Sequence record: SRR9188677_231
Reading direction: 5' to 3' (one strand)
DNA: 64,000 bases
Shown here: positions 41,346-61,045 of the stretch, in pieces
How positions within the stretch are numbered: position 1 is the first letter of the stretch
How the letters are laid out: every line of letters starts with the position of its first letter
The notes under the pieces: model-generated
The model's input: only the letters and a program-made list of their open reading frames with translations
What the model was told of the DNA's origin: nothing
The model's database searches: none
Translations under genes and position numbers: made by a program

Positions 41346-41504
41346 TGCAATATGCGTACCATAAAAAATAATGATGAAATTAATCAGGTATGTTATTGAT
41401 ATTATTGAATTTAATACTCATCCAAGCTTAAAAATATTCGCGAAAAATTAAAAAATACTGTGTCTCTCACAACACAATCGCCAGACTCTGTTGCTGTAGA
41501 AACA
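41346..41504 (-). promoter_or_regulatory. Sigma-54 promoter 1 with paired enhancer sites
   Basis: TGGTAC-GCATA-TTGCA at 41346-41361; TGT-N10-ACA at 41459-41474 and 41489-41504; IHF-like 41389-41401 (1 mismatch). Confidence 0.75.
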
Positions 41505-41647
41505 GTTTTTCAAGAACTTTGTATGAGAATTTAGATGGTTCAAACTTTGCCTTAGAGCGCTCTTATAGAATCTCACTTAATTAAAATAAATAAAAAAAAG
41601 CCCAGTTTTAACCGGGCTTTATCAGTCGATGAACTTGGAAATATTTG

Positions 41648-42679
41648 TTATTTGACTAATACCTGTGGCGTGTCTGTTGCACCTAAACCGAAGCCACCAT
41701 TGTTTTCAAAGCATATACGTTCATCATGTTCCAAATACTTGGCGCTGGTTTTAGTTTTGGCCCAGCGGGCTTCCAGATTCCAGCCATCAGAATCCTCTGC
41801 ATCGGTATATTTAATCGCAGGAATAGTAATGGTGAAAGGCCGGGTGTAGATGGTCGGATCATCAAACGTGCCTTCGTAATTAAAACGTTTGCCATCGTCT
41901 GAAAAAATATATTTTTCTTTAATAGTGGCATTCTCACTGACGAACTCACCTGAGCGCCCGAACAGTGCTTTTCCGTTATGATTACTCACATCAACAACCA
42001 GCGTATTGCCTTCCCAATGCCCTCTGAAATCACCGTTCCATAGTTTTAATTTGGAAGGCAGATGTGGTTTGTTATCGAGATGGATAATCCGGCTGCCGTT
42101 ATCAAATACAAACAATACATACCCAGGATATTGCAAAATATCATAACCGTGCCAGTAAAAGGATTTTGGTACGCCGCCAGGTGCGCATCGTGCGTTTGGC
42201 TCCACATGACCTGGGTTGGTGGGGTTATGAAAGCCTATCCTGAACTGTTCCACCTTTTCCTTGGCCCATGGCTGGAAAGGGAATTTGCCATCCTGAGGAT
42301 CGCTGATTCGGCTTGGTGCCCGCTCTTCACGTGGCCCCAGTGGTTTTTTTCTGGCTTCGTAAATCACCCCTGCTTGCGGGTCTTCCAGATTGCTGTGATT
42401 ACCAATCGTGTTCGACCACAAGCCACTAATGTCAGGTTGGCCATCCGGCAACCGCGGACCACTCCATTTTCCTGAGACCAGTTTAGGAAATGAAGTTTCA
42501 CGGGCAATCCTGGTCTGACCAGGTGGCGTGACAACCGGTGTTGCAGCAACTGGCTGAGCCTTGCTCTTAGCTTCATCGACAGCCAGCGATGACTCTGACG
42601 CTGCCATTGCGCACAAAGCAAGGAAAATACTGGAGTACCCTGAAAAGCGCTTAATACGATGTTTCATCATATGATTCAT
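41648..42679 (-). CDS. Uncharacterised periplasmic protein (GHWEGxTLVVD family)
   Basis: Signal peptide, GQPDISGLW, CAPGGVP and GDFRGHWEGNTLVVD; paralog of 42713-43528. Confidence 0.8.
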   Translation of the reverse strand: MNHMMKHRIKRFSGYSSIFLALCAMAASESSLAVDEAKSKAQPVAATPVVTPPGQTRIARETSFPKLVSGKWSGPRLPDGQPDISGLWSNTIGNHSNLEDPQAGVIYEARKKPLGPREERAPSRISDPQDGKFPFQPWAKEKVEQFRIGFHNPTNPGHVEPNARCAPGGVPKSFYWHGYDILQYPGYVLFVFDNGSRIIHLDNKPHLPSKLKLWNGDFRGHWEGNTLVVDVSNHNGKALFGRSGEFVSENATIKEKYIFSDDGKRFNYEGTFDDPTIYTRPFTITIPAIKYTDAEDSDGWNLEARWAKTKTSAKYLEHDERICFENNGGFGLGATDTPQVLVK

Positions 42680-42712
42680 TGACCATTCATTTGTTTTAAC
42701 TGAGTTACTGAG

Positions 42713-43528
42713 CTATTTAGTGTCCGGCTTTGGCGGGTAATGTTGCTCGTACTCGAGGGTGTAGCGGTAATCTTCAATGAGCTGAAAGTTTTTTTCTGGG
42801 TGGCGATGCAAATAAACAGTAATGTTCCATGGACGGCTAAACACATTTTTGTCTTTAATCGTAGCCTTGTATTCAATCGTGTTAGCATCAGCCAGCTTCC
42901 AGCGCTCCACAACGTGCAGTGCATCACTGTGAAAGTTACCTGAACGATCCAGCCAGGTTTTATCATTAAAGTGCTTCACGTCAACAACCAGGGTATCGCC
43001 TTCCCAATGACCACGGGAGTCGCCTAACCACCAGTCGTTAGGATCATCAGGATGCTCGGTATTGTTGGTGTGTATAGTGCGTACCGAGTGTCCAAATTGA
43101 TGCACGATAGTGATATCACGTGGCCGTTGGAATAGCTGGATGGGTTCACGGTAATAGATGCCACGTGGTACGCCGAGCGTGGCACCTCTCAAGCGTGGAT
43201 CTGCGGTGAACCTGTTTTCAAAATTCTTCTTTCGCTGCTCTAGAGCTTGCGGCAGGTAAGGAATCTCTCCACCCTCCACCACACCCACACCAGAAGAAGC
43301 ATCAGCGCGTGCAATATGTGGCTCCAAATCTTCATCTGCCGAACTGGTGGTCTCCCATATACCGGAAAAATCCGGTTTTTTGTCAGCTCCGCGAGGAATT
43401 TTGGCATCGTGGGCAAATACATGATCGACCGGTAAAAAAAAGGCCAACACCATGAAAGACAGCAAGGTCGCTATTTCTTTCACACGTTGCCCGGATTGCA
43501 TCTTTAAAGGCATCAACTGAAATCCCAT
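42713..43528 (-). CDS. Uncharacterised periplasmic protein (GHWEGxTLVVD family)
   Basis: Signal peptide, KPDFSGIW, GDSRGHWEGDTLVVD, HSDALHVVER; start may be 43501-43528. Confidence 0.8.
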   Translation of the reverse strand: MGFQLMPLKMQSGQRVKEIATLLSFMVLAFFLPVDHVFAHDAKIPRGADKKPDFSGIWETTSSADEDLEPHIARADASSGVGVVEGGEIPYLPQALEQRKKNFENRFTADPRLRGATLGVPRGIYYREPIQLFQRPRDITIVHQFGHSVRTIHTNNTEHPDDPNDWWLGDSRGHWEGDTLVVDVKHFNDKTWLDRSGNFHSDALHVVERWKLADANTIEYKATIKDKNVFSRPWNITVYLHRHPEKNFQLIEDYRYTLEYEQHYPPKPDTK

Positions 43529-43555
43529 TCTTTTAATTTTTTGTCATCAGTGACA

Positions 43556-43999
43556 TTAGTTAGTGGTACCTGCAGACGGCAATGCTGGTGCGTCCTGTGC
43601 ACCGCCAGTCTGGAATACCCGGCCATCGGCCAATTTGATAGAAGTGGAATAGGCGAATTTCTTACCATTCTTCGATAAATAACCATTGATGACTACTTCA
43701 GTACCTGATGGCAACACAGTTTTGGTCAGGCCTTTTTGTTTGAGGCTGAAAGGTGCCCCAAACTCAAATCCCCAGTTGCTGACTGTGCCATCGGCTTCTT
43801 TAACATCAACATATACCCAGCTATGCGGGTTCACCCACTCGGCTTTGGTGACCACACCTTTAATTTCAATCGGCTTCAAAGCATCAAACTCTGCCGAAAA
43901 AGCATGGTGTGCAGTCACATTCTGTGCACTTAACATTAAGCCGGTAGTTATGACGGCTAAAGTCCCCTTAAAGCACACAAAACTATTTAATTTAGTCAT
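43556..43999 (-). CDS. DUF6152-like periplasmic protein
   Basis: Signal peptide ending A|HHAFSAEFD, WVNPH motif, OB-fold-like strand pattern. Confidence 0.75.
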   Translation of the reverse strand: MTKLNSFVCFKGTLAVITTGLMLSAQNVTAHHAFSAEFDALKPIEIKGVVTKAEWVNPHSWVYVDVKEADGTVSNWGFEFGAPFSLKQKGLTKTVLPSGTEVVINGYLSKNGKKFAYSTSIKLADGRVFQTGGAQDAPALPSAGTTN

Positions 44000-44034
44000 T
44001 CTTTAAATCTCCACTATTTTCTCTAATGCTTGTA

Positions 44035-44439
44035 TTACTCAGCTTTAGTCAATACAGCCAATTTGGATATGCCAACACGTTCCACTATCGCCATCACCTT
44101 TGCAACAGACCCGTAATTCACTTCATCGTCTGAACTCAGATGAAACACCTGTTCCGGACGTTGCTGGTAAATCGTTTTCAACTTGCTTTCAAGCTCGGTC
44201 AAGGGCACTTGGTCTTTATCCACGTAAACATCGCCTTTGGCGTCTACACTTAATGTCACAGGTTTAAGCTGGTCGGTAGGTTTGGTTGCAACCGTTTTAG
44301 GTAAATTCACGGAGATTGCATTGGTCATCACCGGGGCAGTCACAATAAATGCCACCAGCAATACCAACATCACATCCACTAATGGGGTTACGTTGATCTC
44401 ACTCAGGACGTCGTCGCCATCGCTTGAACTAAAAGACAT
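44035..44439 (-). CDS. exbD: ExbD/TolR biopolymer transport protein
   Basis: EINVTPLVDVMLVLL motif. Confidence 0.93.
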   Translation of the reverse strand: MSFSSSDGDDVLSEINVTPLVDVMLVLLVAFIVTAPVMTNAISVNLPKTVATKPTDQLKPVTLSVDAKGDVYVDKDQVPLTELESKLKTIYQQRPEQVFHLSSDDEVNYGSVAKVMAIVERVGISKLAVLTKAE

Positions 44440-45167
44440 TAAGCTATCGCTCCTTTCAGGTTACGCACTACATTAGCTTCTTGAGTTGTACTGCCAGTTT
44501 CAATACGTGGCTGGAAAGTCACGCGGCGGGATACTTTGATCAAGTCTGCGGCAAAATCATCCAGGTTGTCGCTGCTGGTCTTCAAGCGGCGCAGGAAGAA
44601 GTTATAGGCAAGCACCGCCGGCACCGCTACAGCAATACCAATTGCAGTCGCAATCAATGCCTCACCAATCGGGCCTGCAACGACTTCCAGGCTGGCAGAG
44701 CCCAGGCGGCTGATGTCAGTCAGCGCGTGCATAATGCCCCACACCGTACCAAACAGACCGACGAATGGCGCAGTACTACCAATACTAGCCAGCACTACCA
44801 GACCGGCTTCACGGATAAAACGCTCTTTTTTAATCTGCTGTTTTAACGCACGCTCCAGTACATCCTGGCGGTCACCGGAGTGCTGCAGATCACCACCAGC
44901 GCCTGATGAAGCATCAAACTCTTTCAGTGCATGAAAACCCACTTGGGCGACACGATAAGCAGGGCCTGCATGCCCTTCTAACTTAGAAGCGGCATTCAAA
45001 TCGGACGCAGACCAGAATGCGCCACGGAATTTAACGTTTTGACGGCGGATCAGCCACACCTGATAGGCCTTAATTAAAATCAAAACCCAGGTGAAAATTG
45101 AGCCGATGACTAATGCAATCAATACACCTTGTACGACTGCAGATGTTGATGAAGATACTTCTAACAT
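44439..45167 (-). CDS. exbB: ExbB/TolQ proton channel
   Basis: APFVGLFGTVWGIM and EALIATAIG motifs. Confidence 0.93.
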   Translation of the reverse strand: MLEVSSSTSAVVQGVLIALVIGSIFTWVLILIKAYQVWLIRRQNVKFRGAFWSASDLNAASKLEGHAGPAYRVAQVGFHALKEFDASSGAGGDLQHSGDRQDVLERALKQQIKKERFIREAGLVVLASIGSTAPFVGLFGTVWGIMHALTDISRLGSASLEVVAGPIGEALIATAIGIAVAVPAVLAYNFFLRRLKTSSDNLDDFAADLIKVSRRVTFQPRIETGSTTQEANVVRNLKGAIA

Positions 45168-45179
45168 AATCTAAATTCC

Positions 45180-46028
45180 TTATTGTTCAGGATTAAAAAT
45201 AATTGGCACAGTAGCCCAGCCATCGATAGGTGTGCTGCCACGCTTAGAGGGTACGAAAGTCCATTTCATGACAGTATTTACAGCCGCATCATCAAGTATT
45301 TTCTTACCGGTTGATTTTTTGACTGTTGCACTCTCAGGGGCTCCACTTGCCAACACTCGTACACGCAATATGACTGTTCCACCCCACCCGTTTCTTAATG
45401 CCGCACCGGGATAATCAGGTTTGGGGTTATTCAAATAGCCTGCGTTAGCAGAAGCTTCTGTTACAGGTTCTTCAACCTTGGGTGCAGGCGGTGCTGGTGG
45501 TGGCGCTACTTCAGGTATCGGTGCGCTTTTGTCCAGCGGACCGCTGGCTGCCATCACCGGCGCACTGGTTGCCTCTGCCTTGGTGTTTTCTTGCACAGTC
45601 AAATCAGTCGGCGCCACATTTTCAACCGCAGGCGCCGTTTTAAGTGCTGCGATGGGCTGGGGTGGCGGCGGTGCTACTTTCTGTACTTTTGGTGGCGGCG
45701 GAGGCGGTGGTGGCGGAGGCGGCTCTACCACCGGCGGTGGAATTTCAGGTTTGATAAACTCAATCGCCACCTCATGCTTAGGTTCAACAACCAAAGGAGG
45801 CTGCTCGTAATTAAGATATGCCCATACGGCAGCCAGGTGCAGTAAAACAATGCCTGTACCAGCCCAAATGTAAACACTCTTTTTTAGCTCGCCATCAAAC
45901 TGCAACCCTTGCTTGATAGCAATCCGTTCCAGTTTTGCAGCCAATTGTGCCGTTGGCTTTGCCAACTGGCTAAAAGTTTTGTCATCAAATGCATCAACTA
46001 CATAACGACTTAGTGAACTCGACATCAA
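45180..46028 (-). CDS. tonB: TonB energy transducer
   Basis: TM helix with LH, poly-Pro spacer, YP..A..G..GTV and LDDAA...W.F C-domain. Confidence 0.92.
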   Translation of the reverse strand: MMSSSLSRYVVDAFDDKTFSQLAKPTAQLAAKLERIAIKQGLQFDGELKKSVYIWAGTGIVLLHLAAVWAYLNYEQPPLVVEPKHEVAIEFIKPEIPPPVVEPPPPPPPPPPPKVQKVAPPPPQPIAALKTAPAVENVAPTDLTVQENTKAEATSAPVMAASGPLDKSAPIPEVAPPPAPPAPKVEEPVTEASANAGYLNNPKPDYPGAALRNGWGGTVILRVRVLASGAPESATVKKSTGKKILDDAAVNTVMKWTFVPSKRGSTPIDGWATVPIIFNPEQ

Positions 46029-46099: not shown

Positions 46100-46215
46100 T
46101 ACAATTTTTGTGCCAACATAAAAAACCATTAATATTCAATTGGTTAAGACATAAATCGCATTTCTTCCAATGGTTAACTGTCTCTGTAGAAACAACTACT
46201 GTTGCGTGGCAAACA
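46100..46215 (-). promoter_or_regulatory. Sigma-54 promoter 2 with paired enhancer sites
   Basis: TGGCAC-AAAAA-TTGTA at 46100-46115 (-12 is GT, not GC); TGT-N10-ACA at 46179-46194 and 46200-46215; IHF-like 46134-46146 (1 mismatch). Confidence 0.65.
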
Positions 46216-46294: not shown

Positions 46295-47425
46295 TTACTG
46301 GATAATGCCGTATTGCTTTAAATAAGCCCTTAACACATTACGGCTAATCCCCAGCACCCGCGCCGTTTGCACTTGGTTCTGGTGTGAATATTCATAAGCT
46401 TTGAGCACAATTCTTTTAACGCAATTCTCAAGCAATTCATCTGGCTCCAGTTTGATATATTCACGCAGCAAAGCATCCATCTGATCTTCAAGTGACAAAC
46501 TATTGCTTAACCCTGAGCCTGCAAGACTTTGCAAACTTGGCAAGTTCAAATCCGATGGCTTCAGCAATTTGCCGTCGCACACCAGTAATGCCCGGTGAAT
46601 GACATTTTCCAGTTCGCGGATATTTCCCGGCCATGGATAATCATTCATCAATTTAATTGTGTCTGATGTCAGCTGCGGCTTCACCGTATGCAAGCGATTG
46701 CGATAGACCTCCAGAAAATGTTCAACCAGAGGCAAAATATCCCCCTTACGATCTCGCAAAGGCGGGATCTCAATGGGGACCACTTTAATCCGGTAGTACA
46801 AGTCTTCCCTGAACCTGCCTGCATTCACGGCTTCCACCAGGTTCACATTGGTCGCAGCTATCAGCCGCACATCAATTGGAACCGGTTTTCGGGAACCTAT
46901 CGGCGTCACTTCACGCTCCTGTAAAACCCTGAGCAACTTCACCTGGGTGGAGAGAGGTAAATCTCCGATTTCATCCAGGAATAAAGTCCCGCCGTTGGCA
47001 GTCTCGAACCATCCTTTTTTGGAACCGACGGCGCCGGTAAACGCACCTCGCTCGTAACCGAATAATTCACTTTCAACCAATGTTTCTGAAAAGGCACCGC
47101 AATTGATGGCCGCAAATGGGCCCGCTTTTCTTGGGCTTAAATTATGGATATGTCTTGCTACCAACTCCTTGCCCGTCCCAGTTTCACCTTTAATCAAAGC
47201 AGTAGCATCACTTGGTGCTACCTTTTCAATCAAAGAAAGTAACTGTTTGGATTTCTCATCAGAATAAATGAGTGCGCTTGCTCTAACGGATAAACTTAAA
47301 CGTTGTGGATTGGGAAAAAGAACAATCTTGTCCTCTCCCGAAAGGTTTTCATCAAACTCGGATGCTGTCCATACTCCCTCGCCCGCATTGTCACGATCAT
47401 TTCTCGCCATTTGTGTATCCGTCAC
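46295..47425 (-). CDS. Sigma-54-dependent activator (bEBP), SfnR-like, lacking an N-terminal sensor domain
   Basis: GETGTGKE, GAFTGA, FLDEIG, FREDLYYR, WPGNIREL, Fis-type HTH (NQVQTARVLGISRNVLR); short N-terminus LSLSVRASALIYSD resembles SfnR-type activators. Confidence 0.9.
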   Translation of the reverse strand: MTDTQMARNDRDNAGEGVWTASEFDENLSGEDKIVLFPNPQRLSLSVRASALIYSDEKSKQLLSLIEKVAPSDATALIKGETGTGKELVARHIHNLSPRKAGPFAAINCGAFSETLVESELFGYERGAFTGAVGSKKGWFETANGGTLFLDEIGDLPLSTQVKLLRVLQEREVTPIGSRKPVPIDVRLIAATNVNLVEAVNAGRFREDLYYRIKVVPIEIPPLRDRKGDILPLVEHFLEVYRNRLHTVKPQLTSDTIKLMNDYPWPGNIRELENVIHRALLVCDGKLLKPSDLNLPSLQSLAGSGLSNSLSLEDQMDALLREYIKLEPDELLENCVKRIVLKAYEYSHQNQVQTARVLGISRNVLRAYLKQYGIIQ

Positions 47426-47535
47426 GTGGTATTTATTTTCAAAAACGTGAAAGATACGCTTGCTACATAATAATTACAAATAACATTTTGTCATTCATTT
47501 ATATCAAATAGTTATTAAAAAATCGGCAATTCTAC

Positions 47536-47664
47536 TGCTGGCACTGCAACAGTTCTGAATAGGCAATTGCTGCGAAATCAACAGAGGCAACATTTAAATA
47601 AAAAACACAAAGCATACAAGCCATTGATTAAAAGAGTTTTTAATAAGGTGGCACACATTCTGCT
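47536..47664 (+). promoter_or_regulatory. Sigma-54 promoter 3 with paired enhancer sites
   Basis: TGC-N10-ACA at 47536-47551 and 47568-47583; exact IHF consensus 47617-47629 (minus strand); TGGCAC-ACATT-CTGCT at 47649-47664. Confidence 0.8.
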
Positions 47665-47752: not shown

Positions 47753-49885
47753 ATGTCACGCCGAGCTAAGCCCTCATATTCGTATTTATCTGCATTATTT
47801 TTATCACTGGCAGCTTTAACAGAATTTCAACAAGCAATGGCTGCTGAAGAGGAGTTACCTGCTGTTGAAGTGAAAGGTAAACAAGAACAAGAGTCGTCTA
47901 TTAATTTGAAAGCTAAAACCAGTACTGGTAGCCGCCTTGGATTAACCAATCTGGAAACCCCCGCCAGCGTAGAAACACTGGATGCCGAGACAGTGAAACT
48001 TCGCGGCGATTTCAGCATACGCGAAGCTGTTTCCCGAACTACTGGTTTCACAGATATTAGCAACCTGGGCACCGGTGTTGCTTACTCTGCCCGTGGCTTC
48101 ACCGGCAACAACTCAGTAGCCCAGGCAGAAGATGGGATACGTTTGCTAGTCGCGGCTACGACCATCACCTACCCCTCCGATAGTTGGGGCTATGACAGAT
48201 TCGAAGTATTGCGTGGCCCGGCATCAGTACTGTTCGGTGACGCTTCAGTCGGCGGCATTGTGAACAGCATCCGCAAAGCACCAAACCGCGAATTTTCATT
48301 GCAAGGCCTGGTGAGTGGTGGCACACAAGGCGCCTATCGTTTAGGGATAGGCGGCACAGCACCAGTGGGTGAAGTAGCCGCCGTACGTATTGATGCATCG
48401 GCTTCGGGCGGTCAGGGACATGTGGATGATGGACGTTATTACAGTCACAAGCTAATGACTAATTTTGAGATCAAGCCAAGTGATACGCTCAAGCTGAACT
48501 TTATCTATGATCATAGTGATGAAAATCCTATGAATTACACTGGCATCCCATTAAAGAATGGCCGGATTAAAAGTGAGCTGCGTGACGAGAATTACAATGT
48601 AGACAATGCTATTCAAGAATTCCTGGATGACAGATTGAAAGCCAAGTTGGAATGGGATATTTCAGACTCTTTGAAACTTACTAACACAGCGTACTGGTTT
48701 AACTCACGCAGGCATTGGCGTGGAGTTGAATTGTACGCTTTAGGCGCTACTCCTAATACCGTCAACAGGAACACTTATACCGAGATACAGCACAAACAAA
48801 GGCAACTGGGTAACCAGACTATTCTCGCCGGCACGAGTGAGCTTTGGAATCATGAAAACAAATGGTCTGTTGGCTATGAAGTTGCTCGAGTTGATTTCCA
48901 GTATTTTGACAACTTCTACCTGGGCAATGACCCGAGTAGTACGGTTGATATTAGCAACAGCAATCCTGGCTTGTTTCAAACCATAGACCCAACGCTAAAG
49001 GAATTTACCTCCAAGACAGTGCAACAAGCCTTGTTTGTAGAAGACGCTTTTCGCATTACGCCTGACCTAACCTTAAGTGCAGGTCTTCGCCAAGACTGGA
49101 TCGACCTTGATCATACTGCCACCCTTCCTTACAGAACCACTGATTACAACAAGCAGTTCTCCCCCTTCTCATTCCGTCTGGGTGCTACTTACTTGTTCTC
49201 ACCGAACACATCACTATATGGTCAATGGAGTCAAGGTTCTGACCCTGTCTCTACGATTGTTAGCACACGTTCAAACAATCGCAACTTTAAACTTACCTCG
49301 GCAGAGCAGACTGAAATTGGTATCAAGCATGTGCTCGAGAATCGGAAAGGCGAGTTTACTGTGGCTATCTACGATATCAGCAAGGATGATATTCTCACGC
49401 GTGATCCCAGCAACCCAACGCAGACGGTACAGGGTGGTAAGCAATCATCCAGGGGCATAGAGTTTTCTGCTTTATTATTACCGCTTGATCATTGGCGCAC
49501 AGACTTTAACCTTGCTATTCTGGATGCTCAATATGACGAATTGCGTGAAGGTAGTGCGGGTATTTCGCGTGCAGGCAACACCCCAGTTGATGTTCCGGAG
49601 CGTGTAGCTAATGCGTGGGTCTATTACCAGCAACCATTGTGGCAAGCCGGACTAGGTGCACGTTTCGTTGGTGAACGTTATTCGAATAATGCCAATACGA
49701 CAAAATTGCCTGGCTATACCGTTTATGACGCTAATGTAGCTTGGCACATTAATAAAAATATCACACTGCGTGGCAGCATCCGCAATTTGACCAATAAGTT
49801 GTATGCGGCTGTCTCTTACGATACCGAGCAGTTTCTCATTGGTGAATCTCGCCGTGCCGAAATTAGAGGCGAGTTTAACTTTTAA
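47753..49885 (+). CDS. TonB-dependent receptor (siderophore-receptor-like)
   Basis: ETPASVE, RFEVLRGPASVLFG and RNLTNKLY motifs; terminal Phe. Confidence 0.92.
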   Translation: MSRRAKPSYSYLSALFLSLAALTEFQQAMAAEEELPAVEVKGKQEQESSINLKAKTSTGSRLGLTNLETPASVETLDAETVKLRGDFSIREAVSRTTGFTDISNLGTGVAYSARGFTGNNSVAQAEDGIRLLVAATTITYPSDSWGYDRFEVLRGPASVLFGDASVGGIVNSIRKAPNREFSLQGLVSGGTQGAYRLGIGGTAPVGEVAAVRIDASASGGQGHVDDGRYYSHKLMTNFEIKPSDTLKLNFIYDHSDENPMNYTGIPLKNGRIKSELRDENYNVDNAIQEFLDDRLKAKLEWDISDSLKLTNTAYWFNSRRHWRGVELYALGATPNTVNRNTYTEIQHKQRQLGNQTILAGTSELWNHENKWSVGYEVARVDFQYFDNFYLGNDPSSTVDISNSNPGLFQTIDPTLKEFTSKTVQQALFVEDAFRITPDLTLSAGLRQDWIDLDHTATLPYRTTDYNKQFSPFSFRLGATYLFSPNTSLYGQWSQGSDPVSTIVSTRSNNRNFKLTSAEQTEIGIKHVLENRKGEFTVAIYDISKDDILTRDPSNPTQTVQGGKQSSRGIEFSALLLPLDHWRTDFNLAILDAQYDELREGSAGISRAGNTPVDVPERVANAWVYYQQPLWQAGLGARFVGERYSNNANTTKLPGYTVYDANVAWHINKNITLRGSIRNLTNKLYAAVSYDTEQFLIGESRRAEIRGEFNF

Positions 49886-49908
49886 GCAAGCATCTTGAGT
49901 TAGTTGTT

Positions 49909-51902: not shown

Positions 51903-51957
51903 GGTATTGACTCCGCTTTAACAGTGGGTTCATCAATGAGTTTAGCTGAAACAAAAA

Positions 51958-51998: not shown

Positions 51999-52016
51999 GA
52001 GCCAATCAGTGAATTG

Positions 52017-52631: not shown

Positions 52632-52662
52632 GTATAAACTTGCTTTCTATTGCGATTGGAGT

Positions 52663-53139
52663 CTAATTCAAAAAACCGATTGCACGTCCTGCAAATGCAA
52701 CCCCAAACCACAGGGTGAGGCTCAGTATTGCTGCGGATATTGCGACCACAGGTTTTGGATTCTCTTTACGCGTCACCAGCCTTGTGATCGTGAAATGCAC
52801 TACCAGTACCGCGGCCAGCAGATAGAACTTCAGCCAGAATGCAGGATTCGGGTAATACAATGAAGCGCTGGGCAGAAGAATAAACAAGCCGGATATGGCA
52901 ACCAGTACCAATCCAGCCAGGATCAAGGGATTAGTGACTTTAGCCAGGTAAGGAATGGGTTGATTGCGCAATCCAAACCCAATCAGGCGCAGGTTTACGA
53001 TTAATACGGCAGTTAAAATCAGCAGGAATCCCAGTATGTGAAACAGTTGTGCAACTGCACCGGCAAATGCATTCAGCTGCGAAATATACAGGCTTACCTG
53101 ATTGGTTTGAAGTTCATTAAAAAAAGCTTCTGTGGTCAT
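52663..53139 (-). CDS. DUF6644-like four-TM protein
   Basis: FHILG...NLRLIG, SG, NPAFWLK, W...GRAIG; start placed at MTTEAFF; paralog of the next gene. Confidence 0.75.
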   Translation of the reverse strand: MTTEAFFNELQTNQVSLYISQLNAFAGAVAQLFHILGFLLILTAVLIVNLRLIGFGLRNQPIPYLAKVTNPLILAGLVLVAISGLFILLPSASLYYPNPAFWLKFYLLAAVLVVHFTITRLVTRKENPKPVVAISAAILSLTLWFGVAFAGRAIGFLN

Positions 53140-53164
53140 GATCTGGTTCTCGCAATTACTTAGA

Positions 53165-53674
53165 TTAGAATCTGGATTGGGTTGCTTCAAGGTATGGAAT
53201 CAATCGCCCCAAAATAACGACGCCGCTCCATGAAATCAGCGAAACCCAGCCTGCCAGCTTGGCGCCTGCCGGAAATTGAGCCTGCTGACCCCATACTTGT
53301 ACAGTCCTGCCAAACTTCAGTTCAAACCAAAGTGCATTGAAACCGGCGACCACAATGAGTGCCAGTTTGAGTGGGAAAACCGGTATTTCCCAGATACGCG
53401 GGCCTTCAGCCCATAACAAAATAATGCCGGTGACAAAGGTAATCAGGAACCCCACCAACACATAAGGCCTGAAATTATGCAGCACTTCATTGACGGGCAC
53501 TTGCTTGAGGAATACCCCAATCAATCGTAGATCAGTTGCTATAATCAAGCCCACCGATAGTGCCAGCCCGATCAAATGAATGCCTTCCAGCAACGGAAAC
53601 AGATACAGTGATTCGCGCACACTGGTACCAAACTCTGAGTCATGCAGAATTTGTAGAAATTGAATAATGGTCAT
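53165..53674 (-). CDS. DUF6644-like four-TM protein
   Basis: EGIHLIG...DLRLIG, TG, F.LK, W...GRLIPY. Confidence 0.75.
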   Translation of the reverse strand: MTIIQFLQILHDSEFGTSVRESLYLFPLLEGIHLIGLALSVGLIIATDLRLIGVFLKQVPVNEVLHNFRPYVLVGFLITFVTGIILLWAEGPRIWEIPVFPLKLALIVVAGFNALWFELKFGRTVQVWGQQAQFPAGAKLAGWVSLISWSGVVILGRLIPYLEATQSRF

Positions 53675-53780: not shown

Positions 53781-53939
53781 AGCAGACTCCATGCCATCAA
53801 TTAGCCCAAACAAAAAACTTATTTAAGTATATGATTTATATATCATTTATCAACAAACCTCACATTGATTGATGGTGATACCAGGAAGCGGCTGTTGCCT
53901 GTGCAACAAATGGCTCGAGAGGGTGTTGATTACCCAGCA
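53781..53939 (-). promoter_or_regulatory. Sigma-54 promoter 4 with paired enhancer sites
   Basis: TGGCAT-GGAGT-CTGCT at 53781-53796; IHF-like 53824-53836 (1 mismatch); TGT-N10-ACA at 53893-53908 and TGT-N10-GCA at 53924-53939. Confidence 0.78.
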
Positions 53940-54079: not shown

Positions 54080-54967
54080 TCAGGCCAGGTGTTGACGGAA
54101 AAACTGCACCGTCCTTCCCCAGGCTAACTTTGCAGCTTCCGCGTCGTATCGCGGCGTTGTATCGTTATTGAAACCATGCTGAACATCAGGGTAAATAAAT
54201 GCCTGATAATTCACTTTTGCGGCTTTTAGTGCGGCCTCATATTTAGGCCAACCAGCATTGATACGTTCATCCTGACCTGCATAATGCAGCAATAAAGGCG
54301 CCTTGATTTTGGCGACTTCTTCATCAGCAGGCTGCCCACCATAGAAAGGGACGGCTGCCCCAAGATCGGAGACTTTAGTCGCCAGGAAATTGGAAATACC
54401 GCCGCCATAACAAAAGCCGACCACCCCGACTTTGCCATTACCTTGCGGCAATTTTTTCAGTGCAGCCGCTGAGGCAATAAAATCTTCACGGCTTTTAGCC
54501 TGGTCCAGCTTCTGGAAAAGTTCACGCGCCTTGTCTTCATCACCGGGATAGCCTCCCAGCGGGAAAAGCGCGTCAGGGGCAAATGCAATAAAGCCATCCA
54601 CAGCCAGACGGCGCGCGATATCTTCAATATGCGGATTCAGGCCACGGTTTTCATGCACGACCAGCACAGTCGGCAACTTGCCTTTGGCATTGGCTGGCGT
54701 GACCAGATAGCCGCGCACTTTGCCGTAACCATTGGGCGAATCAATTTCAATGTACTCTGCCTTGATCCGCACATCAGACTCTTCGACTTGCTTGGCCTGG
54801 GCAAATTTGGGCGTCAAAGCCGCCAGCAGGCCGCTGGCAGTCACCCCAGCAACTGTATATTTACCAGCCTGGTTCAGAAAGTCACGCCGACTGATATCAC
54901 CGTGCACAAACTTGTCAAACAGCCCCAATACTTCCGGATGAAAATCCTTCGCTGTTTTTTGCGTCAT
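54080..54967 (-). CDS. yghX: YghX-like dienelactone hydrolase family protein with Tat motif
   Basis: SRRDFL, HENRGLNPH, GFCYGG nucleophile and HGFNND motifs. Confidence 0.85.
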   Translation of the reverse strand: MTQKTAKDFHPEVLGLFDKFVHGDISRRDFLNQAGKYTVAGVTASGLLAALTPKFAQAKQVEESDVRIKAEYIEIDSPNGYGKVRGYLVTPANAKGKLPTVLVVHENRGLNPHIEDIARRLAVDGFIAFAPDALFPLGGYPGDEDKARELFQKLDQAKSREDFIASAAALKKLPQGNGKVGVVGFCYGGGISNFLATKVSDLGAAVPFYGGQPADEEVAKIKAPLLLHYAGQDERINAGWPKYEAALKAAKVNYQAFIYPDVQHGFNNDTTPRYDAEAAKLAWGRTVQFFRQHLA

Positions 54968-54998
54968 TCAAATTCTCCGTAATGTCAGTGATCAATGG

Positions 54999-56351
54999 TT
55001 ATTTAGGGCGGCCAAGGAAGCCTTGCGCCAGCAATGGAATACGGTAAGCGGCGCCACGGCCAACTACGTACAAGGTTTTCTTATCTTTGCCGGCAAAGGC
55101 CAGATTCTGTGGCTTGTTAGGTAAAGCGATAATGCCCTGTTTTTCACCTTTGGCATTAAACACTTCCACACCTACATTAGTGGCAACATACAAGCGATTC
55201 TCCGAGTCCACTGCAATACCATCTGCACCGCTGGAGAACTCACCTGCGGCGTTCTTTTGATAACCTTCCAGCTTGGCGAAATCACGCTTGTTGGATAATG
55301 AGCCATCTGCTTTAATGTCATAAGCAATCAGATATTGATTCGCGGTGTCAGCCACGTATAACGTCTTTTCATCTGTACTTAACTGTACACCATTCGGGCG
55401 CTTCAGATCATTCACCACCCGTGTTGTTTTACCTTCAGGAGTGATGTAATAAACCGCTGGTCTGGCAGGCTCATTATTCCCTTCTTCTGGCTTGGGAATC
55501 ACGCCAATATCGGTAAAGTAGATACCGCCTTTTTTATCCAGTACCAGATCATTCGGGCGCTGGAACGGTTTGCCATCATAGCTGTTTGACAATACTTTTT
55601 CATGGCCGGCAGGATAGATAATTCCGACTTGCGGCTTCAGGTTCTGCACAGAAATCAGGTCACCTTTAGGTGTGAATGCCAAACCATTAGAACCATTGCT
55701 GTTTTGCAGGAAGATAGACACGGCACGGTCATCTTTCAGCTGCGTAATGCGGTTAGCACGGGTCTCGGTGAAAATGGCAGAGCCGTCCGGCAAGGCAATC
55801 GGGCCTTCGGTACCATCAAATCCTTCATACAAGAATTCGTACTTGCTACCTTTGGCGACAACACCAGGGATATCCGCATTCACTTCATACTTTGGTGTCG
55901 GCGGTGCGATTTTGGTTAATGCACCACCCTGTGCTTCGTAGTCCTGTGCGCCAATTGCACCAACGACCTTATAGCCTTTATTAATCAGCAGATCAGCTGC
56001 TGCATGCGCTCGACCGGCATGATTGGAGACTGTAGCAACCTGTTTATCCTTTGGAATGTAATCCAGGTACTTTTCCAGCTCTTTGGATTGGATATTCAGA
56101 TAAACCGGGAAACCACCGATTTTGATTAACTCGTCCGGACGACGTAAATCAATCAGTACATACTCATTTGGCTTGGACAGAATGGCATCGACTTCTTCAC
56201 GGGTTAATTTCTTGGAAATTGGTGGTTTTTTTGCTTCTTGCGTGCTCGCTTGCGGTTCAGCCGCAGCTACGGTGGTCGTCACCCCTCCGGCATAAGATAC
56301 CGTTGCCGCGGAAATAAATAGTGTTGCTACGATCAAGTGGATCTGTTTCAT
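54999..56351 (-). CDS. Secreted fusion: rhodanese-like domain plus SMP-30/gluconolactonase propeller
   Basis: Signal peptide; IDLRRPDE...VSNHAGRA rhodanese fold; TEGP, RPND, RPNG and ADGI propeller motifs. Confidence 0.85.
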   Translation of the reverse strand: MKQIHLIVATLFISAATVSYAGGVTTTVAAAEPQASTQEAKKPPISKKLTREEVDAILSKPNEYVLIDLRRPDELIKIGGFPVYLNIQSKELEKYLDYIPKDKQVATVSNHAGRAHAAADLLINKGYKVVGAIGAQDYEAQGGALTKIAPPTPKYEVNADIPGVVAKGSKYEFLYEGFDGTEGPIALPDGSAIFTETRANRITQLKDDRAVSIFLQNSNGSNGLAFTPKGDLISVQNLKPQVGIIYPAGHEKVLSNSYDGKPFQRPNDLVLDKKGGIYFTDIGVIPKPEEGNNEPARPAVYYITPEGKTTRVVNDLKRPNGVQLSTDEKTLYVADTANQYLIAYDIKADGSLSNKRDFAKLEGYQKNAAGEFSSGADGIAVDSENRLYVATNVGVEVFNAKGEKQGIIALPNKPQNLAFAGKDKKTLYVVGRGAAYRIPLLAQGFLGRPK

Positions 56352-56443: not shown

Positions 56444-56633
56444 TGCAACACACATGCCAGTTTTAGAAGTCGCAATAAAATTATTTCCAGTTTGAGAAGA
56501 ATCACCTAACCAATTGATTTTAAAAACCTTTAAGTAAAACAAAAATGGCACACCATTGGTGTGCCATTTAACGATTGCCATCTATCTGTTGATTTCGCAA
56601 CAGTTGCGATATCAGGCTGTTGGGTCAGAAACA
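56444..56633 (-). promoter_or_regulatory. Sigma-54 promoter 5 with paired enhancer sites
   Basis: TGGCAT-GTGTG-TTGCA at 56444-56459; exact IHF consensus 56507-56519; TGT-N10-ACA at 56587-56602 and 56618-56633. Confidence 0.82.
56543..56569 (-). terminator. Palindrome with T-tract, probable terminator for the upstream operon
   Basis: aaatggcacacca-t-tggtgtgccattt; continues ttgtttt on the minus strand. Confidence 0.55.
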
Positions 56634-56838: not shown

Positions 56839-57123
56839 TTATTTCAGATAGGTTTTAAGAACGTTGATGACCTCATCAAGATCTTCCTGGCGATTATGGC
56901 CATGCTCATCTGCCTCGTGCGGCTGGCCTAAATGTTCGCGAATATGGCCCTCCAGTGCTTCAGACATCAAGCCATCAATAGCCCCTCTCACAGACGCGAC
57001 CTGGTGCAGAAAATTAGCGCATGCCACCCCGTTATATAGTGACTTTTCCAGCGCGTCGATTTGACCTTTGATTCGGTTAATGCGCAGGCCAAGTTTTTTA
57101 TTATTTTCCGTGATGTGAGACAT
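56839..57123 (-). CDS. CsoR/RcnR-family repressor with RcnR (Ni/Co) fingerprint
   Basis: From MSH: His3, Cys35, His60, His64; RINRIKGQ and C-terminal YLK. Confidence 0.85.
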   Translation of the reverse strand: MSHITENNKKLGLRINRIKGQIDALEKSLYNGVACANFLHQVASVRGAIDGLMSEALEGHIREHLGQPHEADEHGHNRQEDLDEVINVLKTYLK

Positions 57124-57191
57124 GGTGTTCCTTAAAAATAATGCCGGGGCAGAATAACTGGCTCCCGGCATTGATGGTCAAGTCGAGAGAG

Positions 57192-57812
57192 TTAGCTTGA
57201 ATACTTAATTGAGCAACCATAAGGCTTGGTGCTGGCGTGCGGCACTTTCTTGCCATCAGCCAATGCTGCCCATACTTCGCGCACGTAGTTGTTTGCTTTT
57301 GGCAGATCTTCTACTTTGGCAGTTGGAATGTCATCAATGCCGCCTTTGTAGACCAGGATGCCTTTAGGATCAACAATGTAAATGTGCGGTGTCGTCTGTG
57401 CGCCGTAAGCCTGGCCAATTTTTCCATCCGCATCCAGCACCACATAAGCAGGTTTTGCGCTTCTGGATTCATTCAGTTTGGTGGCTTCTGCACCACTCAC
57501 ATGGCCTTGTTTACCTTCTGCGGATGAGTTTACTTGTACCCATACAATATTCTTAGCGGCTGCGTCTTTTTGCAGTTGTGGAATATTACCACTTTCATAG
57601 TGTTTTTTTACAAACGGGCATTCGTGGTTGGTCCACTCCAGCACCACTGTTTTGCCTTTCAGCGAATCCAGGCTGAGCTTGCCGCCATCTGCTGTGGTGC
57701 CAGTGAATGCCGGTGCCGGTTTATCTATAATGGCTTCTGCAGAAACTGACTGGCTGAATACGCCAATCGCCAAACCGATCAAGGTATGAGTAAAAATTTG
57801 CTTAATTTGCAT
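57192..57812 (-). CDS. Periplasmic peroxiredoxin-like (AhpC/TSA) redoxin
   Basis: Signal peptide, EWTNHECPFV, TTPH, YKGGID and YGCSIKY motifs. Confidence 0.85.
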   Translation of the reverse strand: MQIKQIFTHTLIGLAIGVFSQSVSAEAIIDKPAPAFTGTTADGGKLSLDSLKGKTVVLEWTNHECPFVKKHYESGNIPQLQKDAAAKNIVWVQVNSSAEGKQGHVSGAEATKLNESRSAKPAYVVLDADGKIGQAYGAQTTPHIYIVDPKGILVYKGGIDDIPTAKVEDLPKANNYVREVWAALADGKKVPHASTKPYGCSIKYSS

Positions 57813-57846
57813 GATAGCTCCTGGGTTGTATAAAAGTTGTGGTTAA

Positions 57847-59955
57847 TTAAAGTTGGATATGGGAAAGCACACTGGCTGGCGTCAGAATCTGTGGCAGCTC
57901 AATCGGCTTACCGGCATGTCCCGCGGGATAAAACACGTACAAGGGCACACCACTGCGCCCGAACTTAGTCAGAATTTTGGTGATTTCGGCATCTTTGTTG
58001 GTCCAGTCGCCTTTTAAATACGTAATTCCCTGTTGTTCGAATGCCTGTACGACTTCGGGCTGGCTAAGCGCGACCTTCTCATTGACCAGGCAACTGATGC
58101 ACCAGGCCGCAGTAAAATTCAGGAACACCGGCTTGCCTTCTGCCAGCAGGGACTCAAGTTTTTCGGCCGAATACGGCTGCCAATTTTGTTTTAGGGATTT
58201 AGCCTGTTTATCAGGCAAAGCTTCTGTGGGAGTTTCGGCCAGTAAAGTGACCAGCCCGATAGCAAGCCCCACCACCAGCACTACGCCAGCATTTGCAAAT
58301 TTAAGCCTGGTGGATGAAGCGCCCCTGCTGATGGCATACATCCATGCGGCCAATGCAATCAATACAAAACCACTGAGGACCAGCACCACCGCCAGCTCGC
58401 CTTGCTGCTGGGCTAGCACCCACACCAGCCACACGGCGGCTGCATACATAGGGAATGCAAAAAACTGCTTGGTGTATTCCATCCATATACCCGGTTTTGG
58501 CAATGCTTTTTGCAGGCCAGGCCAACTGGTGAGCAGCAGATAAGGAAATGCCAGGCCCAGACCGAGACTGATAAAAATCACTATCAATTCAGGTGCTGGG
58601 CGCGCCAGCGCAAACCCTAAGGCAGCGGCCATAAATGGTGCAGTACAAGGCGTCGCCACTACGGTGGCGAGTACACCGGTAAAGAAACTGCCCCAATAAC
58701 CAGGCTTATCCGCCAGATGACTGCCTACGCCACTGATACCGCCACCAATGGTAAACACGCCAGATAAATTCAAGCCGACAGTAAACATCAGGTAAGCCAT
58801 CAGGAACACAAACCACGGTGACTGGAACTGGAAGCCCCAGCCCACCTGTGCCCCACCCGCTTTTAACAACACCAGAACCAGGGCTAGCGCAACGAAGCTG
58901 ACAACCACACCAAGGGTATAAACAAGCCCTTGCCTGATCAGCTCACCGCGACCGAGACTGGAATGCGAGATGAGAGAAAGTGCTTTGATAGACAGTACCG
59001 GAAACACACAAGGCATCAGGTTGAGGACTATGCCGCCTGCGAACGCCAGAAAAATCGCCAGCAACAGGCTGTCAGTGCCTGTTTCAGCGGGACTAGATTC
59101 AGTCACGGTTTGCAGTTTGGGATTCAGTAAATAACCGCTGGTTTCAGTGCTCTGCCCCTTTGCAATTAACACGCCTTCCAGTGCTTCGCCGGGTTGCAGC
59201 GGCATATCTCCGGCATGCAATTCTATGGCGATGCCAGTAGCGGTTTTTGTAACTACCTGCTCATGGCTTTGGGCAATCTTTCCCCATTCGTAAGGATAAA
59301 ACCAGATATCCTTCACTGCTGCATCAGCTAGTTCGGGCGCATCCACCAGTAATGTCAATGAACCGTCACTGCCTTGCAAACGGACAGGCCAGCTTACTTT
59401 GGCAGGCTGTCTTTCCAATGCCAGATCGATATCGGGGGCAGCAGTTTTCCGCCCTTGGCCAGCGGCTACTACTGGCAAATCCAGCGATAAAACAACTTGC
59501 TGTGGAATACACTCTTCCTTGCACACCAGCCAGTCGACCACCGCCTGAACTTTCAGCGGTTTGCCAGGTTTTAAATCGGCTGGCAATTTCAACGGCGTGG
59601 GTAATGTCACGCTATTTTCATAGCCGTAATTCACAATCGGGCCCATTTTGAAACGATCCGGCATTGGCCAGACCACATCACCCGCCTCTACTGGCTGGGA
59701 AAACTTCCAGCCTATGGTAGTCACCGTTCCGGAGTCACCAGGGTTACGCCAATAGGTATGCCAGTGAGGCAGAATATCGAGTTTGATCCCCAGAGTAATT
59801 TGCTCACCTGGCGCAATGTGGCTATGTGAAGAAATCAAGGTGGCTGTCACCTGCGGTGTGCTGGCCTGATTTGAAGCCGCCATTACAGGCAGGCTTAATC
59901 CCATCCAGAGGACCCACAACATCAGGTTTCTGATGGAATAACCTTTAAACATCAT
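57847..59955 (-). CDS. dsbD: DsbD/ScsB-type protein-disulfide reductase
   Basis: WHTYWRNPGDSG and CKEEC alpha domain, NLMPCVFP / ATPCTAP TM domain, WCISC thioredoxin domain; start MMFKG overlaps the upstream stop (ATGA). Confidence 0.9.
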   Translation of the reverse strand: MMFKGYSIRNLMLWVLWMGLSLPVMAASNQASTPQVTATLISSHSHIAPGEQITLGIKLDILPHWHTYWRNPGDSGTVTTIGWKFSQPVEAGDVVWPMPDRFKMGPIVNYGYENSVTLPTPLKLPADLKPGKPLKVQAVVDWLVCKEECIPQQVVLSLDLPVVAAGQGRKTAAPDIDLALERQPAKVSWPVRLQGSDGSLTLLVDAPELADAAVKDIWFYPYEWGKIAQSHEQVVTKTATGIAIELHAGDMPLQPGEALEGVLIAKGQSTETSGYLLNPKLQTVTESSPAETGTDSLLLAIFLAFAGGIVLNLMPCVFPVLSIKALSLISHSSLGRGELIRQGLVYTLGVVVSFVALALVLVLLKAGGAQVGWGFQFQSPWFVFLMAYLMFTVGLNLSGVFTIGGGISGVGSHLADKPGYWGSFFTGVLATVVATPCTAPFMAAALGFALARPAPELIVIFISLGLGLAFPYLLLTSWPGLQKALPKPGIWMEYTKQFFAFPMYAAAVWLVWVLAQQQGELAVVLVLSGFVLIALAAWMYAISRGASSTRLKFANAGVVLVVGLAIGLVTLLAETPTEALPDKQAKSLKQNWQPYSAEKLESLLAEGKPVFLNFTAAWCISCLVNEKVALSQPEVVQAFEQQGITYLKGDWTNKDAEITKILTKFGRSGVPLYVFYPAGHAGKPIELPQILTPASVLSHIQL

Positions 59956-60482
59956 TGTGCGAGCCTGTCCTGGATTTTCTGTAAACCGGCAATGGCGCAA
60001 GGCTCATCCGCGCGGCCGCCACCCACGCCGATCGCACCAATGATTTCATCACCAACCTTGATCAGAATTCCACCCGGACGGCCATTGATATTAGGGTTAG
60101 CCGCCACTGAATCAGCAAATGCCTTATCCGTTTTTGCCTGTTCAAACAAAGCACTGGTGCTTTGTTTGAACTGCAATGCGGTCTGTGCCTTGATCGTGCT
60201 GGAGCTGACGCCACGTGGTGACGTACCATCTGCAGCAAGCAAAGCCTTCAACACTCCTGCGGAATCCACCACACTTGCCGCAACTGTTTGTGCACCATCG
60301 GCAGCACAAGCCTCTACAGCAACTTTTGCGGCTTCTATCGCCAATGCCAGGGATGGGCCTTTGGCTGCAGGCACCCTGGCAGGCGTATTGGCTGGAGGGG
60401 GTGGAGGATCTTCGGCCATCACCGGACTGGCAATGGCTCCGTACAACCACACAAGTACAAGACTTGCAGGTAATTTTTTCAT
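59952..60482 (-). CDS. Secreted GlcG/HbpS-like heme-binding protein
   Basis: Signal peptide, SVVDSAG, KAQTA, PGGILI and GAIGVGG motifs. Confidence 0.82.
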   Translation of the reverse strand: MKKLPASLVLVWLYGAIASPVMAEDPPPPPANTPARVPAAKGPSLALAIEAAKVAVEACAADGAQTVAASVVDSAGVLKALLAADGTSPRGVSSSTIKAQTALQFKQSTSALFEQAKTDKAFADSVAANPNINGRPGGILIKVGDEIIGAIGVGGGRADEPCAIAGLQKIQDRLAQ

Positions 60483-60632
60483 AACATTTTCCCTGAATCT
60501 TTAAACAAATCCTTTAAGCATCATTTTTTTAGCAGGTGTGACGTCATCACCCCACTTCACATTTAGGTTGCTATTCATTAATTCCTGACATGGAAAGCAA
60601 CACATGCATATATAAACATCAGGGAGCTTATT

Positions 60633-60825
60633 CGCAATTGCTATGCCAATACCTCACAAACTTAATATGAGATAAAACAAATAATTTTTAACCGATTAAA
60701 ATCAATACATTATTGGCAGGCACGTAATTAGTTTAAAAATTAAAGTTATTTAGTTAATTACTCTCAAATCATCACGCCTGTTTGAAATTCAACACTTGAC
60801 TCAACATATTGCTGCCACAGAAACA
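60633..60825 (-). promoter_or_regulatory. Sigma-54 promoter 6 with paired enhancer sites
   Basis: TGGCAT-AGCAA-TTGCG at 60633-60648; exact IHF consensus 60700-60712; TGT-N10-ACA at 60779-60794 and TGC-N10-ACA at 60810-60825. Confidence 0.8.
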
Positions 60826-60855
60826 TTCATTCTTATTCAACTTGAGTTTTAACAC

Positions 60856-61045
60856 TGTTTCTACACAAACACTTTGCTCTTGAATTGTTCAGATACCAGC
60901 AGACCCCAGCTTTACATCACCAAGGCCTCAACATCTTGGTGTAGATACCTTTAAAAATTTCATATACAAATCAGCCTCTTAAAAAAAGCTGGCATCAAAC
61001 CAAGCGGCCAGCAAGGCGGAGAAGCAACGTGGCATATTTTCTGCT
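60856..61045 (+). promoter_or_regulatory. Sigma-54 promoter 7 with paired enhancer sites
   Basis: TGT-N10-ACA at 60856-60871 and TGT-N10-GCA at 60886-60901; IHF-like 60969-60981 (1 mismatch); TGGCAT-ATTTT-CTGCT at 61030-61045. Confidence 0.78.

Follow-up and report, generated by a model that had tools for sequence, protein, structure and literature searches.

The 64,000-nucleotide (nt) stretch of methylotroph DNA analysed here, from sequence record SRR9188677_231 (47.7% GC; referred to below as the window), contains seven sigma-54 promoters accompanied by paired palindromic enhancer sites and integration host factor (IHF) boxes. It is likely, judging from sequence comparisons, that the 14 palindromes constitute the operator of an SfnR-family activator encoded at 46295-47425 and that the seven promoters form a sulfur-starvation regulon. 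The promoter layout is a textbook one and the activator family is known. The new elements are the activator paralogue, a regulon without flavin monooxygenases, a one-base split between the sites of two paralogues within one genus, and a link to sulfur for unstudied protein families. The operator would define, base by base, a seven-promoter SfnR-type regulon without known sulfur-releasing enzymes, and would place DUF6152, the unnamed barrel that partners it, and DUF6644 under a single testable condition, that of sulfur starvation. Literature searches returned no description of the window regulon or its motif, and no paper naming DUF6152 or DUF6644 was found in the literature library searched.

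Promoter modules in the window

The promoter, enhancer, and IHF modules are a real feature of the DNA. A sequence-only reading had listed seven elements of the form TGG(C/T)A(C/T)-N5-(T/C)TG(C/T), at 41346, 46100, 47649, 53781, 56444, 60633, and 61030, each oriented toward a gene; all seven were confirmed, and each faces a gene start at a distance of 70-166 nt. In place of the GC that it gave at -12, the element at 46100 has GT. Its seven promoters stand, but they occupy only six intergenic regions rather than seven, because 60633 and 61030 are divergent and have four sites in common. All 14 of its paired enhancer sites are present, and their rough consensus, cTGTTg-N6-(a/c)AACAg, was refined here to cTGTT(G/T)-N6-(C/A)AACAg. 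Between the proximal site and the promoter, three exact IHF boxes and four with one mismatch were found, as it had proposed. The elements are as follows:

41346..41361, minus strand: P1 sigma-54 element, in front of the TonB-dependent receptor gene 38601-41291; predicted start site near 41335
41389..41401, minus strand: P1 IHF-like box, one mismatch
41459..41504: P1 enhancer pair, 41459-41474 (weak) and 41489-41504
46100..46115, minus strand: P2 sigma-54 element, GT at -12, in front of tonB-exbB-exbD-DUF6152-barrel-barrel
46134..46146, plus strand: P2 IHF-like box, one mismatch
46179..46215: P2 enhancer pair, 46179-46194 and 46200-46215, spacing 21 bp
47502..47514, plus strand: extra exact IHF box, within an AT-rich block upstream of the activator gene
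47536..47583: P3 enhancer pair, 47536-47551 and 47568-47583, also 110-160 bp upstream of the activator gene
47617..47629, minus strand: P3 IHF box, exact
47649..47664, plus strand: P3 sigma-54 element, in front of a TonB-dependent receptor and a PepSY-TM gene
53781..53796, minus strand: P4 sigma-54 element, in front of DUF6644-DUF6644-cytochrome c
53824..53836, minus strand: P4 IHF-like box, one mismatch
53893..53939: P4 enhancer pair, 53893-53908 and 53924-53939
56444..56459, minus strand: P5 sigma-54 element, in front of a rhodanese-like/lactonase fusion and a YghX-like hydrolase
56507..56519, minus strand: P5 IHF box, exact
56587..56633: P5 enhancer pair, 56587-56602 and 56618-56633
60633..60648, minus strand: P6 sigma-54 element, in front of HbpS-like, DsbD, redoxin, and RcnR-like genes
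60700..60712, plus strand: P6 IHF box, exact
60779..60901: four enhancer sites common to the divergent P6 and P7, at 60779, 60810, 60856, and 60886, 16 bp each
60969..60981, plus strand: P7 IHF-like box, one mismatch; second candidate box at 60952
61030..61045, plus strand: P7 sigma-54 element, in front of cytochrome b561, cytochrome c', and MdtA-type efflux genes

A loose sigma-54 pattern has 13 matches in the window, and the six that remain beside these promoters lie inside genes or have no enhancers. The six intergenic regions contain 15 matches to TG(T/C)-N10-(A/G)CA, namely the 14 sites and one overlapping register at 41474/41476, while the 18 other intergenic regions longer than 100 bp hold three loose enhancer matches and no matrix match of at least 8 bits. 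In 2000 dinucleotide shuffles of the six regions, none reached the observed seven sigma-54 elements (shuffle mean 0.11), 15 TGY-N10-RCA matches (mean 3.3), or 10 TGT-N10-ACA matches (mean 0.85), and a single one reached the four exact IHF boxes (mean 0.34). Within the gaps between promoter and proximal site, shuffles yielded on average 0.10 exact and 1.8 near-match IHF boxes, and none of 1000 attained three exact or seven near matches. The elements thus lie far above the shuffles. When spacers of 4-16 were scanned, the enhancer pattern peaked at 10 (15 matches), followed by 7 (9 matches). C is the third base in 5/28 half-sites. The weakest site, 41459, scores 8.5 bits when left out of the matrix, and the others 11-22 bits. 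The fourth exact IHF box, at 47502, stands upstream of the P3 sites, on the side of the activator gene.

The two sites of a pair are 21 or 30-32 bp apart, and their centres lie at -97 to -196 relative to the promoter, on one helical face with respect to it (seven proximal sites: R 0.79, p ~0.008 at 10.5 bp). The IHF box is found at 0.46-0.52 of the distance between enhancer and promoter, although geometry in part imposes this correlation of IHF and enhancer positions, and P7 offered two candidate boxes, of which one was taken. In orthologous regions (one misaligned row dropped), the sigma-54 cores are 100% conserved (144/144 core bases) and the enhancer arms 95% (303/319), whereas the enhancer middles are at 72% and the background at 78%. 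The IHF boxes, at 84% versus the 78% background, are therefore the least conserved of the elements. The oriented -24/-12 elements, paired and phased upstream sites, and intervening IHF boxes bear out the layout of bacterial enhancer-binding protein, IHF, and sigma-54 that had been recognised from the sequence.

One further loose sigma-54 match, at 19008 on the plus strand, lies in the gap between argG and argF (18925-19095), faces away from argG, and has no enhancer sites; it is probably due to chance.

The activator at 46295-47425

46295..47425, minus strand: SfnR-like sigma-54 activator, 376 amino acids (aa), without a sensor domain, with a GAFTGA AAA+ core and a C-terminal helix-turn-helix like that of SfnR

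The true start of the activator may be an ATG near 47410. Its only Pfam domains are the sigma-54 activator domain and its lid, from residue 53, and the GAFTGA motif is present. Pfam HTH_8 gave no match at E 0.001; over its C-terminal segment, the protein agrees with P. aeruginosa SfnR1/2 and with all close homologues. The closest named loci belong to Methylophilus (99%). With regard to identity, the protein shares 52.8% and 53.6% with the two Pseudomonas aeruginosa proteins that flank msuEDC, and 37-43% with four other activators of the nearest genome, G001. In the P. aeruginosa record, msuE-msuD-msuC has an activator on either side; by position these are SfnR1 and SfnR2, following PMC8234197. 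Sfa3 is the same protein as SfnR2 in PMC13584744, and lacks a GAF domain according to PMC8855297. The window protein has its nearest known counterparts in SfnR of Pseudomonas putida DS1 and SfnR1/SfnR2 (Sfa3) of P. aeruginosa, which are likewise sensor-less sigma-54 activators, with 53% identity (SfnR1/SfnR2) and the same recognition helix.

In a quickly built tree covering 66 proteins (16 redundant loci omitted, long outgroup branches), the activator falls within a 60-row SfnR-like clade (99% support in the Shimodaira-Hasegawa-like approximate likelihood ratio test, SH-aLRT) and within a branch of 43 rows of Methylophilaceae/Gallionellaceae type. A separate group of four rows comprises SfnR1, SfnR2, a Burkholderia protein, and a second G001 activator (L082), which adjoins sfnG, msuE, sfnB, and ssuD and is 65% identical to P. 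aeruginosa SfnR1 but 54-56% identical to the window activator. Thus, both the SfnR1/2 subclade and the sfnG neighbourhood belong to this second protein, the true SfnR orthologue of G001, whereas the seven window operons contain no flavin monooxygenase. By sequence, the window activator is an SfnR-family paralogue, neither SfnR proper nor NifA.

The enhancer sites had earlier been labelled NifA-type, and this label did not survive. In its layout the module is similar to the NifA upstream activator sequence, with outer TGT/ACA triplets, a 10-base spacer, an IHF box, and a sigma-54 promoter. It would accordingly speak for NifA-type enhancers of a nitrogen-controlled regulon that 10 of the sites fit TGT-N10-ACA and that NifA is among the top NCBIfam scores of the activator. 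However, the score for NifA (TIGR01817) is 327 against a cut-off of 529 bits, and the protein passes no NCBIfam cut-off among the 25 matches listed; it has no GAF domain and stands in the SfnR clade, the sites carry extra conserved inner bases, no nif gene is among the regulated genes, and no nifH scores over the cut-off in G001. The fit to TGT-N10-ACA is merely formal and the operator is of SfnR type, because the site agrees with the pair that precedes P. aeruginosa msuE. A nitrogen-controlled regulon is hence extremely improbable. The sequence-only reading mentioned neither the link to sulfur nor the second SfnR paralogue of G001.

The operator across genomes

Genome-wide scans were made in G001 (92-95% nucleotide identity over this region) and its relatives. 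Upstream of P. aeruginosa msuE, a pair of sites spaced by 31 bp reaches 20.6 and 11.9 bits when scored with the window matrix, and a -24/-12 element comes after it; the paired operator and the sulfur-starvation gene context are common to both systems. The same module precedes msuE-like, ssuB-like/ABC-transporter, and sbp genes in many related loci. SfnR has reportedly been footprinted on three sites upstream of sfnF, and the SfnR operator itself may already be in print.

Of 41 relatives of G001, 15 encode an activator that is SfnR-like at E 1e-100. The strict paired pattern is matched in 12 of these 15 and in 3 of the 26 others, each of the three having a single one-strand match, and a reversed control pattern gave one match in the 41 genomes. 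G024 (99% complete, one contig) and G023 (91%) carry activators of the window clade only, together with the same gene set and with a sigma-54 element and sites at most operon starts. This co-occurrence and the modules of G023 and G024 support the earlier assignment of the sites to the activator at 46295-47425 as its predicted operator.

On the other hand, the sites might be read mainly by the second, canonical SfnR paralogue, or by both in a cascade with the local activator as a mere amplifier. In P. aeruginosa, SfnR2 and SfnR1 reportedly form such a cascade. The SfnR-like protein beside sfnG in G001 has a recognition helix nearly identical to that of the window activator, so cross-activation is possible. 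In addition, the SfnR proteins of P. aeruginosa face sites with T as the third base of the half-site, like those of the window, and G036, whose only SfnR-like match is at 57%, also has T-type pairs. However, G023 and G024 carry the modules with the window-type activator alone, and within the genus the two kinds of site differ by one base per half-site: C is the third base in 32/32 half-sites of pairs beside the classical sfnR, and T in 82/108 half-sites of other pairs (a tally made by hand, leaving out overlapping registers, G036, and the three one-strand matches). Genomes with only the canonical type (G009, G012, and G016, complete; G005 and G025, partial) also lack DUF6152. A main role of the canonical paralogue is therefore considered rather unlikely.

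A strict rule of orthogonal sites for the paralogues was rejected as a general one. It is restricted to this genus, because at P. aeruginosa msuE and in G036 the sites are T-type although the SfnR-like proteins are classical. The genus itself provides a clean case of two activator paralogues with sites differing by a single base per half-site.

In the msuE leader of P. aeruginosa (L119:16390-17053), a third site-like palindrome lies just past the -12 element, and a similar overlap is seen at G001 msuE; such a palindrome could act in repression.

Sulfur content and sulfur context

The regulated operons are listed below:

38601..41291, minus strand: TonB-dependent receptor, 896 aa, 0.8% Cys+Met
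41648..46028, minus strand: tonB, exbB, exbD, DUF6152, and two paralogous unnamed barrels (271 and 343 aa, 33% identical)
47753..51327, plus strand: siderophore-receptor-like TonB-dependent receptor (0.3% Cys+Met) and PepSY-TM protein
51330..53674, minus strand: two DUF6644 membrane proteins, c-type cytochrome, and 190-aa unknown protein
54080..56351, minus strand: Cys-less rhodanese-like domain fused to an SMP-30 lactonase propeller, and YghX-like dienelactone hydrolase
56839..60482, minus strand: HbpS-like haem protein, DsbD, redoxin, and RcnR/CsoR-family repressor
61140..63807, plus strand: cytochrome b561, cytochrome c', and MdtA-type adaptor

Proteins of sulfur starvation are known to be marked by low contents of cysteine and methionine. 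Past residue 30, Cys+Met amounts to 0.85% in 20 regulated proteins versus 3.29% in 33 others (p 7e-8; the activator and two doubtful members left out). The two DUF6644 proteins and the 271-aa barrel (42713-43528) have none at all past residue 30, and the barrel lacks the Cys pair (Cys165, Cys323) that is invariant in the family of its 343-aa paralogue. Since envelope proteins are often low in sulfur, paralogues within G001 were also compared: MdtA of this region has the lowest Cys+Met among 11 efflux adaptors, its ExbB the lowest among 6 ExbB-like proteins, and its TonB receptors are the two lowest of 12 distinct ones. The sfnG locus of G001 is likewise low in Cys+Met.

The neighbours of the 80 closest activator loci include SsuA-like proteins (37), MsuE (22), sulfate-binding protein (8), and CysK (4); several '0 family' neighbour clusters, probably antisense shadows, were excluded from use. 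Directly upstream of the activator, CysE, family 2A encapsulin, and cysteine desulfurase genes occur in 5/80 loci (L004, L009, L031, L055, L071). In L010, the gene placed under the module encodes a sulfate-binding protein and is followed by tonB and DUF6152. Operons of family 2A cysteine desulfurase encapsulins are sulfur-starvation-induced and often include rhodanese and serine acetyltransferase, according to PMC10836720; they are absent from the window, and as neighbours in related loci they do not belong to the window feature. The match of residues 53-135 of the product of 54999-56351 to rhodanese is weak (E ~1e-4), and the domain has no cysteine and so cannot carry a persulfide, which sets it apart from a catalytic rhodanese. 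Neither luciferase-like monooxygenase nor TauD was found in G023 and G024; the regulon thus exists in genomes without luciferase-like monooxygenases, the enzymes that SfnR is known for. A search for the Sulfatase family matched in all five genomes and was hence uninformative.

It could also be considered that the activator was repurposed for a metal or redox signal (iron, nickel/cobalt, or copper) and that the low sulfur content is inherited history. The regulon includes an RcnR/CsoR-family repressor, a siderophore-type receptor with PepSY-TM, haem proteins, and DsbD, and DUF6152 has invariant residues His31, His32, and His59. However, the activator has no metal-sensing domain, sulfur-assimilation genes occur in the same loci, and the depletion is extreme and maintained: 118/120 of the closest DUF6152 homologues have no Cys or Met past residue 30, and hosts of sulfur-free members range over 46-69% GC. 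Such repurposing is improbable.

Proposed mechanism

The sulfur-starvation reading can be put into a series of predicted steps. Lacking a sensory domain, the activator is probably regulated through its abundance. Sulfur limitation would raise its level, most likely via CysB, by analogy with Pseudomonas SfnR. A CysB-family protein over the cut-off was found in 5/5 genomes searched, and the AT-rich block with the extra IHF box upstream of the activator gene offers a candidate site for CysB/LysR; part of this block is preserved in orthologues. Two activator dimers on sites two or three helical turns apart, on one face of the DNA, would assemble an AAA+ ring; a bend introduced by IHF would lie roughly midway to the promoter; and sigma-54 polymerase would be opened by the GAFTGA loop at -24/-12 of all seven promoters. 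Dimer binding, ring assembly, IHF bending, and GAFTGA-dependent opening are the established mechanism of this activator family. SfnR is regulated by CysB and activates sfnFG and sfnA, as stated in paper titles, and SfnR1 protein increases under sulfur starvation according to PMC12581299. The main text of PMC8041468 mentions neither SfnR nor PA2354 nor PA2359, and the 'sFNR' of PMC9687028 has another meaning and is unrelated to SfnR.

The products would form a nearly sulfur-free envelope toolkit, in which a dedicated TonB motor and its receptors are joined by a DUF6152/barrel module in the periplasm, membrane and periplasmic cytochromes, hydrolases, and an efflux pump. With it, the cell would take up and process a sulfur source in short supply, dispensing with the flavin monooxygenases normally under SfnR. 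On the inferred chemistry, import and processing of a sulfur source is most likely the job of this toolkit. A more specific version is tentative: a hitherto undescribed, flavin-independent route of sulfur acquisition in the envelope, with TonB-dependent import of organosulfur or polysulfur compounds, binding or cleavage by a His-His metal site of DUF6152 together with the barrels, and electron transfer by the DUF6644 pair and cytochromes. The route would be governed by its own SfnR paralogue, with sites that depart in one base per half-site from those of the cell's classical SfnR. If true, a family of over 13,000 clusters would gain its first physiology, and there would be an explanation of how sulfur starvation is met by methylotrophs that have no SsuD, SfnG, or TauD.

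Alternatively, the regulon may be controlled by sulfur while its products do not acquire it, serving instead as sparing replacements or for protection (metal uptake, periplasmic redox, efflux). This view is compatible with the regulatory part of the proposal above and is a real possibility, though short of an even chance. Ordinary families (MdtA, ExbB, TonB receptors) are represented here by their most sulfur-poor paralogues, the broad DUF6152 family is normal in Cys+Met with only the subfamily being sulfur-free, the rhodanese-like domain is Cys-less, and P. aeruginosa remodels its iron handling under sulfur starvation, according to PMC12581299. A literature search on sulfur sparing returned no usable bacterial paper. 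On the other hand, DUF6152 occurs in 4/25 genomes of the genus, those with the window-type activator, and in none of the 21 others, so that a sulfur-rich copy awaiting replacement is absent there. Interspersed in the orthologous loci are sbp, cysK, cysE, O-acetylhomoserine sulfhydrylase, and desulfurase encapsulin genes, and a dedicated TonB motor with several receptors points to import.

Several observations weigh against the proposal of a sulfur-acquisition regulon under the local activator. No recognised sulfur enzyme is among the window regulon genes, several of which look metal- or redox-related, as listed above. Three of the 15 genomes with an SfnR-like activator have no strict match (G005, G025, G030), and the module scan was negative in the close loci L005, L011, L015, L017, and L019 and in most Oxalobacteraceae loci. 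Three distant DUF6152 members occur in genomes without an SfnR-like match, and the wider family is not sulfur-poor (mean 1.9%; 22/147 representatives free of Cys+Met). Furthermore, because kin are non-independent, cross-genome p-values are overstated, and the related loci and genomes come from one collection and may overlap.

DUF6152, barrel partners, and DUF6644

DUF6152 (PF19649) and DUF6644 (PF20349) are defined by Pfam membership, and it is a sulfur-free DUF6152 subfamily that is found here, with the barrel partner, under an SfnR-type module. The DUF6152 family comprises 13,164 clusters. Sulfur-free members account for 22/25 metagenome loci at 55% identity or more versus 5/55 below. In loci of at least 8 kb (n=35), the sigma-54 and paired-site module accompanies 7/18 sulfur-free members versus 1/17 others (p 0.04). 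When the DUF6152 protein was searched class-wide at E 1e-25, 1/300 genomes matched, with one more unscored, too few for linkage.

The structural model of DUF6152 is an oligonucleotide/oligosaccharide-binding (OB) barrel, in which the three histidines, invariant in 121 sequences, begin just past the predicted signal peptide. As to a histidine brace, residues 30-32 fall below 50 in predicted local distance difference test (pLDDT) and belong to a low-confidence region of the model. The 343-aa partner is modelled as a barrel like fatty-acid-binding protein (FABP) or nitrobindin. Fold searches with DUF6152 and the 343-aa barrel gave generic matches only, all with Z <8, and in the ESM Atlas only unnamed or DUF clusters matched.

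Neighbouring genes and further observations

In G001, the MdtA operon continues with two resistance-nodulation-division (RND) subunits and an outer-membrane factor (named from translations). Between P6 and the HbpS-like gene, G001 and G024 have a TonB-dependent receptor of 914-934 aa (L112:12572-15316; L163:8881-11685); the window has no such receptor at 60482-60633 and instead an unrelated leader of 166 nt. The repressor at the end of the P6 operon (56839-57171) resembles RcnR/FrmR below both cut-offs. After it, G023 and G024 have a further TonB receptor under a separate sigma-54 module, an order that hints at a need for nickel or cobalt. The 190-aa protein without a known family (51330-51902) closes the DUF6644 operon and directly follows the activator in L010 (7064) and L074 (3567); from this placement, it could be a partner of the activator.

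On the left flank (36448-38436), three open reading frames without a Pfam family, with GC at third codon positions (GC3) of 0.32-0.38, are conserved in L001/L002 and have no promoter module in front of them.

G001 also contains a second cluster (L116:13000-20000, L117:1-3600; G001:C1 625-635 kb), with DUF6152, both barrels, a 952-aa receptor, DUF1549/DUF1553 and DUF1501 genes, and similar sites. All of its genes are sulfur-poor, and it lies near a group resembling LysR, electron transfer flavoprotein (ETF), and ferredoxin reductase, upstream of urease-like genes (named from translations).

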